A stretch of 64,000 bases of DNA from assembly GCF_044324785.1 (NCBI RefSeq), contig NZ_CP172127.1; one strand, written 5' to 3'. Below, one piece after another: positions 4,117 to 40,861 of this stretch. The notes beneath the pieces were generated by a model that made no database searches, was not told the origin of the DNA, and worked only from the letters and a program-made list of their open reading frames with translations. This DNA is from Escherichia coli (GTDB lineage: Bacteria > Pseudomonadota > Gammaproteobacteria > Enterobacterales > Enterobacteriaceae). Made by a program: the position numbers and the translations under genes. The first letter of the stretch is position 1. Every line of letters begins with the position of its first letter.

Positions 4117-4543
4117 TTTTCAACGGAATATCAGGCTGCGGCGTGCTGGGCTGATTCAGCATGTCGCCGTTTCTCCTCTCCGGCAGCATATGCTGCTGAT
4201 TCAACGAACTATCCGGATTACGGTTGCTGTTTAACATCCCGCCGTTGGTGTTGGGCAGCATTTGCTGCCGGGCGGGATTTCGCTCCCCCGGCTGTGACTG
4301 CAACACCCGCTGAGAATTATTGTTTATCTGGTTTTCTAAATGCTGTTGTTGCAACTGAGTTTGCGTTTTCAGTTGCTGATTCAGCATCCCTTTTTGCTGG
4401 ATTTGCTGCGTTTGCATTTGAGTCTGCATCCGCTGCTGGCTGGGGATCTGATATCCCGGCTGGTTGGGGTTGTTCAGAGTATTAATGGGCTGTGCAAAGC
4501 CGACAAACGGCAGGAGTGCCGTAAGAATCAGAAGTCGTTTCAT
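4103..4543 (-). CDS. yhhA: secreted Gln-rich protein of unknown function
   Basis: 146 aa, N-terminal signal peptide [19 protein letters not shown]-rich low-complexity body; convergent 14-nt overlap with ugpQ 3' end. Confidence 0.8.
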
Positions 4544-4662
4544 CGCGTATCCTCCTCTGAAGATATTCTTTAAGTTTACTCCTTTCCTGCAATCATCAGG
4601 ATTAATTCAGAGTTATATACCAGGCTTAGCTGGGGTTGCCCCTTAATCTCTGGAGAATAACG

Positions 4663-6408
4663 ATGATAAAACCGACGTTTTTACGCCGGGTGGCCATTGC
4701 TGCTCTGTTCACAGGAAGTTGTTTTAGTACGGTAGCCGCGCCACCTGCGCCGTCTCCTGTTTCTTACGGCGTGGAGGAAGATGTCTTTCATCCGGTACGC
4801 GCGAAACAGGGGATGGTGGCGTCTGTAGATGCTACTGCCACTCAGGTGGGGGTGGATATCCTCAAGGAGGGCGGGAATGCCGTTGATGCCGCCGTGGCGG
4901 TGGGCTACGCGCTGGCGGTAACGCATCCGCAGGCGGGGAATCTGGGCGGCGGTGGTTTTATGTTAATCCGCTCGAAAAATGGCAACACCACGGCGATTGA
5001 TTTCCGCGAAATGGCACCCGCCAAAGCGACCCGGGATATGTTCCTTGATGATCAGGGCAACCCGGACAGCAAAAAATCACTCACTTCGCATCTGGCCTCC
5101 GGCACGCCCGGTACGGTCGCTGGTTTCTCGCTGGCGTTGGATAAATACGGCACTATGCCGTTGAACAAAGTGGTGCAGCCAGCGTTTAAACTGGCACGCG
5201 ATGGTTTTATCGTTAACGACGCGCTGGCTGACGATCTCAAAACCTACGGGAGCGAAGTGCTGCCGAATCACGAAAATAGCAAAGCTATCTTCTGGAAAGA
5301 GGGCGAGCCGCTGAAAAAGGGCGACAAGCTGGTGCAGGCGAACCTGGCAAAGAGCCTGGAGATGATTGCCGAAAACGGCCCGGACGAATTCTACAAAGGC
5401 ACGATAGCGGAACAGATTGCCCAGGAGATGCAGAAAAACGGTGGCTTGATCACGAAAGAAGATTTAGCGGCGTATAAAGCGGTCGAACGTACACCGATTA
5501 GCGGCGATTATCGCGGGTATCAGGTTTACTCGATGCCACCGCCATCTTCCGGCGGGATCCATATCGTACAAATCCTCAATATTCTGGAAAACTTCGATAT
5601 GAAGAAATACGGCTTTGGCAGCGCCGACGCGATGCAAATCATGGCAGAAGCTGAGAAATACGCCTACGCCGACCGCTCGGAATATCTTGGCGACCCGGAT
5701 TTTGTCAAAGTCCCGTGGCAGGCGCTGACCAATAAAGCCTATGCCAAATCTATTGCCGATCAAATCGATATCAATAAAGCGAAGCCGTCCAGTGAGATTC
5801 GCCCTGGCAAGCTTGCGCCTTATGAGAGTAATCAAACTACCCATTACTCTGTAGTGGATAAAGACGGTAACGCGGTGGCGGTGACCTATACGCTGAATAC
5901 CACCTTCGGTACGGGCATTGTCGCGGGCGAGAGCGGTATTTTGCTCAATAACCAGATGGATGATTTCTCCGCCAAACCGGGCGTGCCGAACGTTTACGGG
6001 CTGGTGGGCGGTGATGCCAACGCCGTCGGGCCGAACAAACGTCCGCTGTCATCGATGTCACCAACCATTGTTGTGAAAGACGGTAAAACCTGGCTGGTGA
6101 CTGGTAGCCCTGGCGGTAGCCGGATTATCACCACCGTGCTGCAAATGGTAGTGAACAGCATCGATTATGGCATGAATGTCGCCGAAGCGACCAATGCACC
6201 GCGTTTCCACCATCAGTGGTTGCCGGACGAGCTGCGCGTCGAGAAAGGATTTAGCCCGGATACGCTCAAACTGCTGGAAGCAAAAGGTCAGAAAGTGGCG
6301 CTGAAAGAGGCGATGGGCAGCACACAAAGCATTATGGTTGGGCCGGACGGCGAGTTGTACGGCGCATCCGATCCGCGCTCGGTGGATGATTTAACGGCGG
6401 GGTATTAA
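4663..6408 (+). CDS. ggt: gamma-glutamyltranspeptidase
   Basis: 580 aa starting MIKPTFLRR, signal peptide, catalytic Thr region QTTHYSVVD; upstream in-frame ATG 4636 judged an ORF-track extension. Confidence 0.92.
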   Translation: MIKPTFLRRVAIAALFTGSCFSTVAAPPAPSPVSYGVEEDVFHPVRAKQGMVASVDATATQVGVDILKEGGNAVDAAVAVGYALAVTHPQAGNLGGGGFMLIRSKNGNTTAIDFREMAPAKATRDMFLDDQGNPDSKKSLTSHLASGTPGTVAGFSLALDKYGTMPLNKVVQPAFKLARDGFIVNDALADDLKTYGSEVLPNHENSKAIFWKEGEPLKKGDKLVQANLAKSLEMIAENGPDEFYKGTIAEQIAQEMQKNGGLITKEDLAAYKAVERTPISGDYRGYQVYSMPPPSSGGIHIVQILNILENFDMKKYGFGSADAMQIMAEAEKYAYADRSEYLGDPDFVKVPWQALTNKAYAKSIADQIDINKAKPSSEIRPGKLAPYESNQTTHYSVVDKDGNAVAVTYTLNTTFGTGIVAGESGILLNNQMDDFSAKPGVPNVYGLVGGDANAVGPNKRPLSSMSPTIVVKDGKTWLVTGSPGGSRIITTVLQMVVNSIDYGMNVAEATNAPRFHHQWLPDELRVEKGFSPDTLKLLEAKGQKVALKEAMGSTQSIMVGPDGELYGASDPRSVDDLTAGY

Positions 6409-30128: not shown

Positions 30129-31646
30129 ATGGAAAGAATAATGCAAAACAGAAAATGGATTTTGACCTCGCTGGTAATGACTTTTTTCGGCATCCCCATT
30201 CTGGCGCAGTTTTTGGCGGCGGTTATTGCCATGCTGGGGGCCGGGCTTGCCGCTATTCTTGAGTTTTGCAATTTACTCTTTACGCCAACAATTTATCTTC
30301 TACTCAACGTCTTTATGCTGACGCTGGGCGCATTACTGCTATTTTTCTCTGGGCGAGTGTGGGCGGGCGATAACGCACCAGAAAACAGAGAAATAGCCGC
30401 CTGGCGACAATGTCTTTTTTTAGTTCCCGCTTTATTAACCCTGGTTGGCTGGATAATCACGCTACATCTGGCAGATTATCAATTTCGCCAGATGGTTTCA
30501 GGTTGGTTGGCAGATCTTATGCTTCCCTGGCTGGGTGTTTTGTTAGTCTCATTAGTCGGTGGTGAGTACTGGTGGATAGTCATTATTCCCGTTGGAACGC
30601 ATATCATTTTTTCGCTGGGATACGGCTGGCCGACAAGGCATCCTTTAACCGGCACGTCCGGGCTACGTTGCCGTAACTTACTCCTGTTTCTACTTCTCTT
30701 ACTTGGTATTGTCGCTGGGTATCAGGCCCATTTATATAAGCAGCATAACCCTGGTGTTGGTGTACGCGAAAATATTGATATCTGGGCCTGGCGACCCGAT
30801 AAACTCAATAATCGACTGACGCCGCTGCGTGGCAAACCGCAAATTCAGTTTACGCAAAACTGGCCGCGAATCGATGGTGCCACGGCGGCGTACCCAATTT
30901 ATGCTTCTGCCTTTTATGCGTTAAGCATAATACCAGAGGATTTTCACGTTTGGGATTATCTGGATAACTCTCGTACGCCAGAAGCATATAACAAAATCGT
31001 TAAGGGCGATGCTGATATTATTTTCGTGGCGCAACCTTCCGGTGGGCAGAAAAAACGTGCAAAGGAATCTGGTGTCACTTTGCTGTACACCCCCTTTGCT
31101 CGTGAAGCATTTGTTTTTATCGTCAATGCTGATAATCCAGTCAATTCCCTGACTGAACAACAAGTGCGAGACATTTTTAGTGGCGCAATTACCAACTGGC
31201 GTACTGTGGGCGGTAACGATCAGGAGATCCAGACCTGGCAACGCCCGGAAGACTCTGGCAGTCAGACGGTGATGCAATTACAGGTCATGAAAAATGTCCG
31301 TATGATCTCGCCGCAGGAAACCGAAGTGGCAAGTGTGATGGAGGGAATGATTAAAGTCGTTGCCGAATACCGTAATACAAACAACGCAATAGGTTATACC
31401 TTCCGCTATTACGCAACACAAATGAATGCCGATAAGAATATCAAATTGTTAGCGATTAACGGTATTGCACCGACTGCGGAAAACATTCGCAATGGCAAAT
31501 ATCCCTATATCGTCGATGCCTTTATGGTAACGCGGGAAAATATGACGTCAGAAACACAAAAACTGGTTGAATGGTTTTTAACGCCGCAGGGGCAGAGTTT
31601 GGTAGAAGACGTGGGTTATGTGCCGATGTATAAAACGTTGCATTAA
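30129..31646 (+). CDS. membrane-anchored PstS-like (phosphate-binding-protein fold) substrate-binding domain protein
   Basis: 505 aa; about 200 aa N-terminal multi-TM region then PBP domain (AAYPIYASAFYAL, DIIFVAQPSGG, NPVNSLTEQQVRDIFSGAITNW, SGSQ); I recall only a short remnant (yzgL) at this position in K-12. Confidence 0.7.
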   Translation: MERIMQNRKWILTSLVMTFFGIPILAQFLAAVIAMLGAGLAAILEFCNLLFTPTIYLLLNVFMLTLGALLLFFSGRVWAGDNAPENREIAAWRQCLFLVPALLTLVGWIITLHLADYQFRQMVSGWLADLMLPWLGVLLVSLVGGEYWWIVIIPVGTHIIFSLGYGWPTRHPLTGTSGLRCRNLLLFLLLLLGIVAGYQAHLYKQHNPGVGVRENIDIWAWRPDKLNNRLTPLRGKPQIQFTQNWPRIDGATAAYPIYASAFYALSIIPEDFHVWDYLDNSRTPEAYNKIVKGDADIIFVAQPSGGQKKRAKESGVTLLYTPFAREAFVFIVNADNPVNSLTEQQVRDIFSGAITNWRTVGGNDQEIQTWQRPEDSGSQTVMQLQVMKNVRMISPQETEVASVMEGMIKVVAEYRNTNNAIGYTFRYYATQMNADKNIKLLAINGIAPTAENIRNGKYPYIVDAFMVTRENMTSETQKLVEWFLTPQGQSLVEDVGYVPMYKTLH

Positions 31647-31748
31647 GCAGGATTACAATATGGATATCATTAATATTTTCCTGAACGCGGCGAATGCCCT
31701 TTTTATCTATCAGCCGTTTATGCACGATCAGCGGGCGAGGGGGTAATT

Positions 31749-32516
31749 ATGCAACCCAGCCCCGCCATGCAGGCATTAATTGAGCAGGTTTATCATATTT
31801 TTCGTCGTTATCCGGTGCCGCAGCAATTTGTTGTTTGTTGTGAATATTGCCTGAGTCAACAGGAACAAAAAGCATTACGGAATACATCGTTGCGAGCGAT
31901 TCCTTATTCCTTAATCAATGCCTGGAATAGTAGTCCAGGACCTGATCCGCAAAACAGCGATGAGGTTCGTTATTTTCTGCCGCGTTTACTGGAATTTGTT
32001 GCACAGGGGCAGTTTGACAATATTCACGAAGTATTTTCTCTACGGCGTATAAACCTTGCCAGTAAAGAAAACTGGCGTGAGGATGAACGGGAAATTTTGC
32101 AACGATTTGCTTGCCAGTATATGACTGATTGGGTATCCGGCGATGAAATTGTCGAATTACAGTACATGCTGGAAATGTTTTTCCGTGCCGATATCGCTCT
32201 TTCGCCATTGCTTGATGCCATTATTTCAGTTCCCGGCTTTTGGTCGGCAGCGTCTCTTGCCTGTTTATTGAATACGTATCGTGACGGTTATATCAGAGAT
32301 AACCAGGACGATATCGATAAAGCCATTACCACTCAAACTAATACTTGGGCTAGTAATAATCAATCCATCCTGAAAGAACGCGCGCGGCAGGCGATTGAGA
32401 ACCCACTTAAGCAGCCCGAACAGGGCACACAGTATCAGATCTGGGAAGACGACTGGATGATTGATGAGTGTTTATGCGCGATGTATGACGCATCATCCGA
32501 ATCACCAGGAAAATAA
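31749..32516 (+). CDS. hypothetical cytoplasmic protein
   Basis: 255 aa ORF, no domain recognised by eye; tightly linked to the next gene. Confidence 0.55.
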   Translation: MQPSPAMQALIEQVYHIFRRYPVPQQFVVCCEYCLSQQEQKALRNTSLRAIPYSLINAWNSSPGPDPQNSDEVRYFLPRLLEFVAQGQFDNIHEVFSLRRINLASKENWREDEREILQRFACQYMTDWVSGDEIVELQYMLEMFFRADIALSPLLDAIISVPGFWSAASLACLLNTYRDGYIRDNQDDIDKAITTQTNTWASNNQSILKERARQAIENPLKQPEQGTQYQIWEDDWMIDECLCAMYDASSESPGK

Positions 32517-32518
32517 AA

Positions 32519-33124
32519 ATGATTAAATTCCGGCTTTATATTCCCCCTGTAATTCTCGGTTTTGTTATCGTGCCAGTATTGGTATGGCCGACGGTTATTG
32601 TCTTAGCCGTACTTATATTCATGTTAACTTTTCTGGCAGAAATAACATTCTCCTTTCCGCTCCTGGTTGTGCGTATTTCTCTTCAGGAATTACAACTTGA
32701 GTTAATGGTTGAATATGCATTTTTTTTCAGTGTAATGTGGGGCATCGGTTGGCAATTCTCCCGCAGAACGCCTCCTGAATTAAAAAACAGACTGCATTGC
32801 TGGCTGGTCTTTTCTCCGGCCTATTTCTGGTTAATTCTCTCGAATTTCATTCTTTATATTACTCCAGAGAAATCAGCGTTGCTGGAAAATATCCGAAACT
32901 TCTTTCTGACGTTTGTCTGGCTTCCCCTGAATTTTTCCCCTTTTTGGCCGCAGCCGTGGACTGATTTTGTCGGCCCGATTAGTGCACAGCTTGGTTTTGC
33001 ATTGGGATATTATTGCCAGTGGTGTAGCAAAAATAGAAGCCAGGGGCAGAAGTGGGTTGAGTGGGGAACGTGCTTAAGTTTGGCGATTTTAGCTCAGGGG
33101 CCGTTATTCAATTATTTACAATGA
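32519..33124 (+). CDS. hypothetical small membrane protein
   Basis: 201 aa, several hydrophobic helices, low GC, starts 2 bp after previous stop. Confidence 0.55.
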   Translation: MIKFRLYIPPVILGFVIVPVLVWPTVIVLAVLIFMLTFLAEITFSFPLLVVRISLQELQLELMVEYAFFFSVMWGIGWQFSRRTPPELKNRLHCWLVFSPAYFWLILSNFILYITPEKSALLENIRNFFLTFVWLPLNFSPFWPQPWTDFVGPISAQLGFALGYYCQWCSKNRSQGQKWVEWGTCLSLAILAQGPLFNYLQ

Positions 33125-34794: not shown

Positions 34795-35199
<405 letters not shown>

Positions 35200-35231
35200 C
35201 GCTTTATACTGTCCCCTTTTGTGTGGAATAA

Positions 35232-36074
<843 letters not shown>

Positions 36075-36090
36075 TTCCAGGGATTTATAA

Positions 36091-36849
36091 ATGAAACAAA
36101 CACAACGTCACAACGGTATTATCGAACTGGTTAAACAGCAGGGTTATGTCAGTACTGAAGAGCTGGTAGAGCATTTCTCCGTCAGCCCGCAGACTATTCG
36201 CCGCGACCTCAATGAGCTGGCGGAGCAAAACCTGATCCTGCGTCACCATGGCGGTGCGGCGCTGCCTTCCAGTTCGGTTAACACGCCGTGGCACGATCGT
36301 AAAGCCACCCAGACCGAAGAAAAAGAGAGGATTGCCCGCAAAGTGGCGGAGCAAATCCCCAACGGCTCGACACTGTTTATCGATATCGGCACCACGCCGG
36401 AAGCGGTGGCGCACGCGCTGCTTAATCACAGCAATTTGCGTATTGTCACCAACAATCTCAATGTTGCTAACACGTTGATGGTAAAAGAAGATTTCCGCAT
36501 TATTCTCGCCGGTGGCGAACTGCGCAGCCGCGATGGCGGGATCATTGGCGAAGCGACGCTCGATTTTATCTCCCAGTTCCGCCTTGATTTCGGCATTCTG
36601 GGGATCAGTGGCATCGATAGCGACGGCTCGCTGCTGGAGTTCGATTACCACGAAGTTCGCACCAAACGCGCCATTATTGAGAACTCGCGCCACGTTATGC
36701 TGGTTGTCGATCACTCGAAATTTGGCCGTAACGCGATGGTCAATATGGGCAGCATCAGCATGGTAGATGCCGTCTACACCGACGCCCCGCCGCCAGTAAG
36801 CGTGATGCAGGTGCTGACGGACCACCATATTCAACTGGAGCTGTGCTGA
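36091..36849 (+). CDS. glpR: DeoR-family glycerol-3-phosphate regulon repressor
   Basis: 252 aa, N-terminal HTH. Confidence 0.92.
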   Translation: MKQTQRHNGIIELVKQQGYVSTEELVEHFSVSPQTIRRDLNELAEQNLILRHHGGAALPSSSVNTPWHDRKATQTEEKERIARKVAEQIPNGSTLFIDIGTTPEAVAHALLNHSNLRIVTNNLNVANTLMVKEDFRIILAGGELRSRDGGIIGEATLDFISQFRLDFGILGISGIDSDGSLLEFDYHEVRTKRAIIENSRHVMLVVDHSKFGRNAMVNMGSISMVDAVYTDAPPPVSVMQVLTDHHIQLELC

Positions 36850-38429
36850 TCCTGCACGGCTTCCCACGTCAGACCAAAACGCGCCAGGTATTTGCGTAGC
36901 CGATCCGCGTCATTGACGCTGGCTTTGCCCTGGCGCGAAACGTCAAAAAGCTGGCGTCCCGCAGCAGAAAGCGATTTTGCCTGGCGGCAGATAGCGATAA
37001 CGTGTTCCAGTTGCAGCCGATCAAAGAGGTCGATGTTTTCTGCCTCAGCGCCCAGCAGTTGCGTAAGCGCGGAGGGACGGCTCTCCTGCCAGTTATAGCG
37101 CAGACGGTTTATCTCATCTTCTACGGTTTCCAGAGTAATGCGCCCGCTATCGGCAAAGGTTGCCATCCGCGTGACGCTGGCAGAAAGTTCTCGAAAGTTA
37201 CCGCGCCATGTTGCCTGGGGAGATGTCGCAAAAGCCAGCCAGGCGCGCCGTGCTTCGGTGTTAAAACGCACGCTGTCGCCGGTGAGTGAGGCGTGGCGCT
37301 CCACTTCATAATCCAGGTTAGGTTCAATATCTTCCTGGCGCTGGCGCAGTCCCGGCAGGGTGAAGGTCCAGAGATTGATCCGCGCGTACAGATCTTCGCG
37401 AAATTTGCCTTCGGCAACCAGTTGGCGCAAATCGCGCACCGTTCCGGCGATCAGCTGAAAATCACTGCTCACCTGGCTATCGCTGCCAAATGGGTAAAAG
37501 GTTTTCTCTTCAATGGCTTTCAGCAACATCGCCTGTTCGTCTGCGCCCAGTTCGCCAATCTCATCAAGAAACAACATGCCACCGTTGGCGCTGCGTAATA
37601 ATCCTTCACGAGATTCCCGCGCCCCGGTAAACGCGCCTTTCACATGACCAAACAGCGTCGACATGGCGGTATCGCCGCGCAGGGTGGCGCAGTTCACTTC
37701 TACAAATGCGCCGCTAAACTGATGCCGCGCCTGTTTTAATTCGAAGATGCGTCGTGCCAGAAACGACTTGCCCGCACCGGTTGGGCCGTTAAGCAGGATC
37801 GGTGCGCGGGATTTGATCGCCACTTTTTCGATCTGCTCAATCATGCGGTTGAAGTGGGGGTTGCGTGTGGCAATGCCGGATTTGAGGAAGTCGAGGGTTT
37901 GCTGGCGTTCCTCGGCAAAGCGGCTGGCGATGGCGTTATAACGGCTTAAATCGAGATCGATAATCGTCACTTCACCTGCGCCGCGTGGTTGTTCTTTTTT
38001 GCGCGGTGGTGAAGATTGTATCAGCCGGGCGGGCAGGTAACGCGCTTCCGCCAGCAGAAACCAGCAAATCTGCGCGACGTGGGTGCCGGTGGTAATGTGA
38101 ATTAAGTATTCTTCTTTATCAGGGTGAAACGCGTACCCACGGGCGAAATCATGCAGGCAGGCGTAGACCTCTTCGAAATCCCACGGGTTATGCAGTTCTA
38201 TCTCAACGCCCACCACTTCTGTTTCTGGCGAAACGCTGGCGATATCGCGTTTAAGCGTTTCGAATAGCGAGCGCGAGCGGGCATCGTGCAATAATTCCAG
38301 TCGATCGATGACTAACGATTCTTGCTGGCATAAACAAAGCGTCGGACGCCATTTCGACCAGCGCTGACTGCCGCGCCCGGCATAATCCAGCACCGTTCCG
38401 ACAAAACCAAAAGCCACTGTTTTACGCAT
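36831..38429 (-). CDS. rtcR: sigma-54-dependent transcriptional activator of rtcBA
   Basis: 532 aa, AAA+ sigma-54 activator motifs GPTGAGKS, GAFTGA; 19-nt convergent overlap with glpR. Confidence 0.9.
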   Translation of the reverse strand: MRKTVAFGFVGTVLDYAGRGSQRWSKWRPTLCLCQQESLVIDRLELLHDARSRSLFETLKRDIASVSPETEVVGVEIELHNPWDFEEVYACLHDFARGYAFHPDKEEYLIHITTGTHVAQICWFLLAEARYLPARLIQSSPPRKKEQPRGAGEVTIIDLDLSRYNAIASRFAEERQQTLDFLKSGIATRNPHFNRMIEQIEKVAIKSRAPILLNGPTGAGKSFLARRIFELKQARHQFSGAFVEVNCATLRGDTAMSTLFGHVKGAFTGARESREGLLRSANGGMLFLDEIGELGADEQAMLLKAIEEKTFYPFGSDSQVSSDFQLIAGTVRDLRQLVAEGKFREDLYARINLWTFTLPGLRQRQEDIEPNLDYEVERHASLTGDSVRFNTEARRAWLAFATSPQATWRGNFRELSASVTRMATFADSGRITLETVEDEINRLRYNWQESRPSALTQLLGAEAENIDLFDRLQLEHVIAICRQAKSLSAAGRQLFDVSRQGKASVNDADRLRKYLARFGLTWEAVQDQHSSS

Positions 38430-38562
38430 CTTAGATATCCTTATAAAAGACGATATTTCATTATCGGCAAATTGGCTTTGCGGGAAATCTCCGTTTACGG
38501 ACGTAAAGATTTAATCTATTAAAAACAATGAATTAAAAAATTAAGCTGCTTATTTAATTTTC

Positions 38563-38578
38563 TGGCACGACGGTTGCA
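38563..38578 (+). promoter_or_regulatory. sigma-54 (-24/-12) promoter of rtcBA
   Basis: TGGCACgacggTTGCA about 37 bp upstream of rtcB ATG. Confidence 0.8.
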
Positions 38579-38614
38579 ATTATCAGGACATACCAACGAA
38601 AAGAGAAAAACAAA

Positions 38615-39841
38615 ATGAATTACGAATTACTGACCACTGAAAATGCCCCGGTAAAAATGTGGACCAAAGGCGTGCCGGTAGAAGCCGATGCGCGTCAGCA
38701 ACTTATTAATACGGCGAAGATGCCGTTTATTTTCAAACATATTGCGGTAATGCCTGATGTACACCTGGGTAAAGGTTCCACCATTGGTAGCGTGATCCCG
38801 ACCAAAGGGGCGATTATTCCGGCGGCGGTGGGCGTGGATATCGGTTGTGGAATGAACGCACTGCGTACCGCGTTAACGGCGGCAGACCTGCCGGAAAACC
38901 TGGCGGAGCTGCGTCAGGCAATTGAATCTGCCGTGCCGCACGGGCGTACTACCGGGCGTTGTAAACGTGATAAAGGCGCATGGGAAAATCCGCCTGTTAA
39001 CGTCGATGCGAAATGGGCTGAGCTGGAAGCCGGTTATCAGTGGTTAACGCAAAAATATCCCCGTTTCCTTAACACTAACAACTATAAACACCTGGGAACG
39101 CTGGGAACGGGTAACCACTTTATTGAAATCTGCCTTGATGAGTCGGACCAGGTGTGGATTATGCTGCACTCCGGTTCACGCGGAATCGGTAATGCCATCG
39201 GAACTTACTTTATCGATCTGGCGCAAAAAGAGATGCAGGAAACGCTTGAAACGTTGCCGTCGCGTGATCTGGCGTACTTTATGGAAGGTACGGAATACTT
39301 TGATGATTACCTGAAAGCCGTGGCCTGGGCGCAGCTTTTTGCCAGCCTTAACCGCGATGCGATGATGGAAAACGTGGTAACGGCGTTGCAGAGCGTTACG
39401 CAGAAAACGGTAAGACAGCCACAAACGCTGGCGATGGAAGAGATCAACTGTCACCACAACTATGTGCAAAAAGAACAGCACTTTGGTGAAGAGATCTACG
39501 TGACGCGTAAAGGCGCGGTGTCTGCGCGTGCTGGTCAATATGGAATTATTCCCGGTTCGATGGGGGCGAAGAGCTTTATCGTCCGTGGGCTGGGAAATGA
39601 AGAGTCGTTCTGTTCGTGCAGCCACGGTGCCGGGCGGGTAATGAGCCGTACCAAAGCGAAAAAACTGTTCAGCGTGGAAGATCAAATTCGTGCCACCGCG
39701 CATGTGGAATGCCGTAAAGATGCCGAAGTGATCGACGAAATCCCGATGGCGTATAAAGATATTGATGCGGTGATGGCGGCACAAAGCGATCTGGTGGAAG
39801 TTATCTATACCCTGCGTCAGGTGGTGTGCGTAAAAGGATAA
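38615..39841 (+). CDS. rtcB: RNA-splicing ligase RtcB
   Basis: 408 aa, conserved metal-binding His/Cys motifs. Confidence 0.92.
   Translation: MNYELLTTENAPVKMWTKGVPVEADARQQLINTAKMPFIFKHIAVMPDVHLGKGSTIGSVIPTKGAIIPAAVGVDIGCGMNALRTALTAADLPENLAELRQAIESAVPHGRTTGRCKRDKGAWENPPVNVDAKWAELEAGYQWLTQKYPRFLNTNNYKHLGTLGTGNHFIEICLDESDQVWIMLHSGSRGIGNAIGTYFIDLAQKEMQETLETLPSRDLAYFMEGTEYFDDYLKAVAWAQLFASLNRDAMMENVVTALQSVTQKTVRQPQTLAMEEINCHHNYVQKEQHFGEEIYVTRKGAVSARAGQYGIIPGSMGAKSFIVRGLGNEESFCSCSHGAGRVMSRTKAKKLFSVEDQIRATAHVECRKDAEVIDEIPMAYKDIDAVMAAQSDLVEVIYTLRQVVCVKG

Positions 39842-40861
<1,020 letters not shown>

Follow-up and report, generated by a model that had tools for sequence, protein, structure and literature searches.

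The convergent genes glpR and rtcR of Escherichia coli share 19 nt of sequence at their 3′ ends. This overlap is most probably a passive, near-neutral by-product of gene packing and not a regulatory device, the two transcripts ending independently of each other, each inside the partner gene. Of little consequence in itself, it neatly illustrates the general principle that a convergent coding overlap alone implies neither shared termination nor interference. Short overlaps arise neutrally upon loss or shift of a stop codon. Moreover, since bacterial transcripts routinely end inside a neighbouring gene, often via Rho, a convergent overlap need not mean shared termination.

Genes and geometry of the overlap

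The window, that is the whole 64,000-nt stretch of E. coli chromosome that was analysed, carries glpD, glpEGR, rtcR, rtcBA and malT; the ORFs beyond malT would fit malPQ and gntT. Pfam matches, orthologs and RefSeq annotation establish both ORFs at the junction as genuine protein genes, oppositely oriented and with common 3′ ends (Table 1). The two products are full length with respect to RefSeq proteins and orthologs. Their Pfam domains (HTH_DeoR, residues 6-61, and DeoRC, 74-231, in GlpR; RtcR, 2-185, Sigma54_activat, 187-354, and AAA_lid_14, 362-443, in RtcR) all stop short of the overlap. The original prediction, which had named the two genes and described their convergence and the length of their overlap, was thus borne out to the nucleotide by the ORFs, by Pfam and by the annotation of MG1655.

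Table 1. Features at and beyond the glpR/rtcR junction, in window positions.
Feature	Position	Strand	Description
glpR CDS	36091..36849	+	252 aa, C-terminus ..HHIQLELC; stop codon TGA at 36847-36849
rtcR CDS, sigma-54-dependent activator of rtcBA	36831..38429	-	532 aa, C-terminus ..WEAVQDQHSSS
Convergent glpR/rtcR coding overlap	36831..36849	both	19 nt, with both stop codons
Hairpin in glpR-sense RNA	36837..36863	+	GGAGCUGUGC, loop UGAUCCU, GCACGGCUUC; 10 bp, -16.4 kcal/mol
Second stable structure, glpR-sense read-through region	36880..36937	+	9-bp G+C stem CGCGCCAGG/CCUGGCGCG, -33.8 kcal/mol
glpR-sense read-through into antisense rtcR	36850..37183	+	up to the published Rho peak

On the glpR side, the overlap comprises the last base of codon I247, the codons Q-L-E-L-C and the stop; on the rtcR side, it comprises the last base of codon D527, the codons Q-H-S-S-S and a TGA stop that is read from 36833 down to 36831. 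The part in which sense codons face sense codons amounts to 13 nt (36834-36846). The two genes are set third codon position against third codon position, the least constraining phase, so that synonymous change is still possible in each gene. Among Escherichia species, the only variable sites within the 19 nt are 36834 (A/G) and 36840 (G/A), two such shared third positions at which the changes are synonymous in both frames.

Opposite glpR, and spanning it from end to end, an ORF of 260 aa at 36085-36867 (-) is read in a frame other than that of rtcR. Probably this is no gene but a 'shadow' of the coding frame of glpR.

Annotation and prevalence in E. coli

The overlap is already known, being annotated and fixed in E. 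coli. In MG1655 (NC_000913.3), rtcR (b3422) is annotated at 3558268..3559866 and glpR (b3423) at 3559848..3560605, which gives the identical 19-nt overlap, and the annotations of strains N3 and A0 34/86 have equal geometry. The sequences of MG1655 and of the window are identical within 60 nt on each side of the overlap. The two strains differ in that glpR is intact (252 aa) in the window whereas it is a pseudogene in K-12 MG1655, with a 1-nt frameshift near codon 51 (positions 4349-5106 of the MG1655 locus, L001). Apart from this frameshift, GlpR of the window matches the MG1655 pseudogene, and it does not differ at all from that of strain N3 (100% identity); RtcR and its MG1655 counterpart share 97.6% identity. 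In the literature searched, papers naming both rtcR and glpR do so in gene lists only, and the overlap is not discussed.

A 31-mer spanning the overlap was found in 5423 of the 5426 complete E. coli genomes (with at least 99% identity in 5398), and a 281-nt query covering the junction matched 5424 of them. An alternative stop that would remove the overlap from one of the genes was looked for and does not occur: both stop codons are the first in frame and are fixed across E. coli. Together with the full-length proteins, the matching annotations and the prevalence of the 31-mer, these first in-frame stops refute an annotation or sequence artefact, which can be set aside with near certainty.

The overlap in other genera and its expected length

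A scan for RtcR using one genome per species returned 21 loci. In five Escherichia species, Klebsiella oxytoca, Intestinirhabdus alba and Superficieibacter electus, glpR is found convergent to rtcR. The overlap is 19 nt long, with the RtcR tail DQHSSS, in the Escherichia species and in K. oxytoca. It reaches 35 nt in I. alba, where a frameshift caused by a 7-nt deletion gives RtcR the tail ISTAPAEYGDR, and it is 4 nt long (CTAA/TTAG) in S. electus, where RtcR ends in ..KEMAN. Across these four genera and three overlap lengths, the C-terminal QLELC of GlpR is kept in all the glpR-rtcR lineages compared.

The conserved sequence of RtcR stops at about residue 522-526 (..RKYLARFGLxWxx). RtcR proteins from Pseudomonas, Iodobacter, Accumulibacter and Desulfo- lineages can be aligned only up to residues 525-527 of the query, and the tails that follow this core in the distant homologues are unrelated, differing in both length and sequence. 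Because the alignment ends at 525-527 and the tails differ, the overlapped DQHSSS is an unconserved tail. Judging from these sequence comparisons, it is the antisense of the conserved GlpR C-terminus that sets the sequence of the RtcR tail.

Most of the distant rtcR loci have a spacer 3′ of rtcR. In one Pseudomonas locus, rtcR is followed by a canonical hairpin and then by seven Ts. Independently of glpR/rtcR, the 3′ end of rtcR overlaps a convergent neighbour by 6 nt in a Desulfovibrionaceae MAG (L020, 4121-4126), and in Accumulibacter a convergent neighbour lies about 15 nt from the rtcR 3′ end (L009, 3770-3786).

When the rtcR frame is continued through the antisense of glpR, stop codons are met with a mean spacing of about 103 nt. 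At this spacing, the 19-nt run-in is short and no more than expected by chance. Among the seven convergent gene pairs of the window, glpR/rtcR is the only one that overlaps, the other six being separated by 28-1271 nt; the overlapping state is thus a minority one here, yet not an unusual one. In E. coli, 663 adjacent gene pairs overlap, of which 75 are convergent (Huvet and Stumpf, 2014; PMC4161906). According to the account of Kingsford (2007) given in PMC3887535, random 3′ extension to the next stop codon explains the lengths of convergent overlaps. The glpR/rtcR pair has the features of such 3′-extension pairs (models of Fukuda, 2003, and Kingsford, 2007; PMC4161906): it is short, labile between lineages and set wobble against wobble, and the residues gained by extension form an unconserved tail of the protein. 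With no notable difference from the others, it is an ordinary member of the class.

Transcription termination around the junction

A scan for the intrinsic terminator consensus on both strands of 35800-38800 gave no site at or near the junction. The nearest terminator-like site on the + strand is a weak 5-bp hairpin at 37018-37032. An intrinsic bidirectional terminator at the junction was therefore rejected, there being no G+C hairpin with a U-tract on both strands.

Published data are available for the glpR strand in MG1655, where DirectRNA-seq was performed with and without bicyclomycin (Adams et al., 2021; eLife, PMC7815308, Supplementary file 2). A Rho termination region was reported at position 3559514 on the minus strand and classed as 'antisense rtcR'. 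Reads upstream and downstream of this position number 154 and 29 without bicyclomycin, and 153 and 256 with it (Rho score 8.89, p 2.7e-27). Mapped through the MG1655 locus L001, the peak falls inside antisense rtcR, 334 nt past the glpR stop, its position being coarse since the method uses 800-nt windows. In MG1655, in which glpR is a pseudogene, the glpR-strand transcript thus continues beyond the junction until Rho halts it within antisense rtcR. It should be noted that untranslated glpR RNA in MG1655 could shift the site of Rho loading as compared with the intact glpR of the window.

These data bear directly on the idea that the two genes have no room for independent terminators. The intergenic spacer is indeed missing, as is an intrinsic terminator at the junction, but termination does occur further on, in the Rho region within antisense rtcR. 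Since terminators can sit inside an opposing gene, the 'no room' conclusion fails, as it presumes that they are intergenic.

Curated Term-seq tables of the same study (PMC7815308) contain no 3′ end within MG1655 3559400-3559999 and no entry for glpR, and entries for glpR and rtcR are likewise absent from the SMRT-Cappable-seq tables. With no curated Term-seq end near the hairpins of Table 1, trimming of the transcript back to these hairpins stays an inference. The C/G ratio at 36804-36933 is 1.2-1.25, and the region is strongly structured, which makes for a weak rut signature.

As outlined by Dar and Sorek (2018; PMC6061677), Rho-dependent transcripts end as a rule at stable stem-loops devoid of U-tracts, with rut sites just downstream. 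Measured against this outline of protected 3′ ends, glpR is similar in two respects, with bicyclomycin-sensitive termination downstream of its stop codon (in MG1655) and stable stem-loops devoid of U-tracts right at and after this stop. It differs from the ends so outlined in that no steady-state 3′ end is reported at its stem-loops and in that its rut signature is weak.

RNA structures at and beyond the junction

The glpR stop codon sits in the loop of the hairpin at 36837-36863. Compared with shuffled sequences, this hairpin is markedly stable on the + strand (z = -4.8) and less so on the - strand (-11.5 kcal/mol, z = -1.5). No U-tract follows it on either strand, the next sequence being CACGUCAGACC on the + strand and AGUUGAAUAU on the - strand. 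The hairpin is weaker in B2 E. coli and is missing from Klebsiella, Intestinirhabdus and Superficieibacter. Its one two-sided change falls short of significant covariation, 168 of 500 shuffles scoring equally well. Protection of the 3′ end may be its putative function.

The original prediction had also put forward shared termination. Such termination at the overlap finds no support in the hairpin, which lacks a U-tract, folds less stably on the rtcR strand and is not backed by significant covariation, nor in the curated Term-seq tables of PMC7815308, which hold no 3′ end at the junction.

The second structure, at 36880-36937, falls inside rtcR codons (RKYLAR / SRQG) and is more stable than shuffled sequences on both strands (z = -5.1 on +, -3.2 on -). 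Across 9 orthologs, 90% of cells pair in its stem, yet two-sided changes are absent. Conservation of the protein, through the conserved LAR and SRQ codons, may explain this pairing. The covariation tests being null for both structures, conservation of neither RNA structure is demonstrated. In terms of predicted folding, the glpR-sense hairpins do far better than shuffled sequences (z ~ -5), which leaves room for some selection on RNA structure.

The 9-bp stem is a perfect inverted repeat, CGCGCCAGG/CCTGGCGCG. On the + strand, the 36880-36937 structure is followed by no U-tract. On the rtcR-sense strand, UUUUGG comes after the repeat, some 40 nt ahead of the rtcR stop, which makes the structure resemble an intragenic terminator. 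Finally, an Rfam scan of 35000-39000 at E <= 1 returned nothing other than a spurious match to a eukaryotic lncRNA.

Polymorphism of the rtc locus

In about 10% of the E. coli genomes with a match (577 of 5425), at least 80% of the 2.5-kb glpR-rtcR stretch is missing. In the B2-type genome Eco-15, a deletion fuses a 399-nt 3′ remnant of rtcR to a partial rtcA. The rtcR 5′ end and the rtcR-rtcB intergenic region are removed, while glpR and the 19-nt junction are intact. Since Eco-15 keeps glpR and the junction without the rtcR 5′ end, glpR is independent of convergent rtcR transcription. As far as gene content can tell, this rtcR-deleted genome argues against an obligatory collision-based or shared termination.

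Related rearrangements were observed elsewhere. B2/ST131-type strains carry a fusion of the rtcR 3′ remnant to partial rtcA, with loss of rtcB (window 36831-40861; L024, 3132-3918; L023). What remains of rtcR in the E. coli genome that represents the species in GTDB corresponds to no more than about 33 codons. A large deletion in E. coli NCTC11023 (L027, 3092-3810) joins a truncated glpR (from about window position 36555) to a truncated malP and takes rtcR, rtcBA and malT. In a single genome, E. coli ETEC1701 (L026, 2428-4553), a deletion runs across the junction. There, glpR has lost the part encoding its C-terminus, and the annotated rtcR measures 1572 nt, 64 of which overlap the glpR remnant.

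The identity of the 2.5-kb stretch (36000-38500) to other E. coli genomes falls into two bands, with 4002 genomes at 95-99% and 1423 at 90-95%, the best match being 98.3%. It was also observed that rtcR is far more divergent than glpR, RtcR being 97.6% identical to the K-12 protein and GlpR 100% identical to those of K-12 and N3. These observations suggest that the rtc locus exists as separate alleles, or that recombination has occurred with a boundary close to the junction.

Proposed origin of the overlap and alternative explanations

In Escherichia and K. oxytoca, the rtcR frame meets no stop codon ahead of glpR and continues for six codons (DQHSSS). The extension covers the antisense of the conserved GlpR QLELC-stop segment as far as the first antisense stop. 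Extension to the next in-frame stop is a known route of 3′ extension, which the overlap probably followed. In the proposed scheme, transcription of each gene would end inside the partner gene and not at the junction. For glpEGR, the end would be the Rho-dependent one published for MG1655, a few hundred nucleotides into antisense rtcR, and the mRNA may afterwards be trimmed to the stem-loops at 36837-36863 and 36880-36937. For rtcR, transcription is probably terminated by Rho within antisense glpR. With each transcript ending inside the partner gene, the two mRNAs would have complementary 3′ regions. Head-on encounters of RNA polymerases would also be possible between the two genes. Transcriptional interference, which the original prediction had given as an implication of the overlap, is physically possible but hypothetical at this locus, and glpR cannot require it, since Eco-15 keeps glpR and the junction in spite of the loss of the rtcR 5′ end. 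The predicted effect of the overlap on the expression of glpR and rtcR is probably small.

In one alternative explanation, the hairpin at 36837-36863 would be a bidirectional terminator driven by collision, at which converging polymerases stall each other and leave sharp, overlapping 3′ ends. Terminators of this type consist of a stem-loop between convergent genes and act independently of Rho (Ju et al., 2019; Wang et al., 2022, bioRxiv 10.1101/2022.10.23.513370). The resemblance lies in the convergent arrangement of glpR and rtcR and in the stem-loop devoid of a U-tract at the gene boundary. The model asks for a stem-loop between convergent genes, with neither Rho nor the sequence of an intrinsic terminator; a stable stem-loop (-16.4 kcal/mol, z -4.8) does stand exactly on the overlap, and no intrinsic terminator is present there. 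However, read-through on the glpR strand is sensitive to bicyclomycin in MG1655, the peak lying 334 nt past the glpR stop; terminators of the collision class, by contrast, are described as acting without Rho. Coincident 3′ ends are not documented, the curated Term-seq tables containing none at the junction. Moreover, the stem-loop is asymmetric between strands, with only -11.5 kcal/mol and z -1.5 on the rtcR strand, and it is unconserved, being weakened in B2 E. coli, absent from Klebsiella, Intestinirhabdus and Superficieibacter, and free of significant covariation. Finally, the B2-type genome Eco-15, which has lost the promoter region of rtcR, retains glpR. A collision terminator is, on these grounds, unlikely.

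A coupling of the excludon type was also considered. Here, glpEGR read-through, antisense to the 3′ region of rtcR, would lower RtcR, or the reverse, either by interference or by RNase III cleavage, and would tie the activity of the glycerol regulon to the RNA-repair operon. Regulatory convergent 3′ overlaps are known, as exemplified by ExcludonFinder (PMC12288877) and by mscL/arfA (PMC10070815). As in these systems, transcripts of opposite neighbours overlap, which for the present pair is seen on the glpR strand, with the glpR-sense transcript extending into antisense rtcR in MG1655; the junction is, in addition, fixed in E. coli. In contrast to excludons, glpR and rtcR give no evidence of mutually exclusive expression or of RNase III processing. 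Furthermore, the literature searched contains no functional link between the glp and rtc regulons, neither the length of the overlap nor the flanking structure is conserved from one genus to the next, and Rho limits the antisense read-through. In addition, rtcR is often deleted while glpR is retained, and is dispensable in many strains. Such a coupling is about as unlikely as a collision terminator. Improbable too is the idea that Rho-limited glpEGR read-through and the exceptionally stable stem-loops at 36837-36863 and 36880-36937 together form an excludon-like or collision-type element that sets RtcR levels. If true, inducibility of the RtcBA RNA-repair operon would follow transcription of the glp regulator operon.

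The preferred reading remains that of an overlap gained passively through gene packing. Since E. coli strains differ here, some having an intact rtcR, others an rtcR remnant devoid of its promoter or a frameshifted glpR, the glpR-rtcR pair is potentially a small natural test bed.

Other features of the window

The intergenic region between rtcR and rtcB contains an exact match to the sigma-54 promoter consensus, TGGCACGACGGTTGC, at 38563-38577 (+), 38 nt upstream of the rtcB start. It is the sole zero-mismatch match to this consensus in the window and agrees with the presence of a sigma-54 interaction domain in RtcR. Upstream of glpD, three ORFs encoding 505, 255 and 201 aa occupy 30129-33124 (+). 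The 505-aa ORF has a PBP_like_2 domain, and the 255- and 201-aa ORFs are without a Pfam match. In E. coli NCTC11023, a hypothetical-protein CDS of equal length (606 nt, 201 aa) adjoins glpD.
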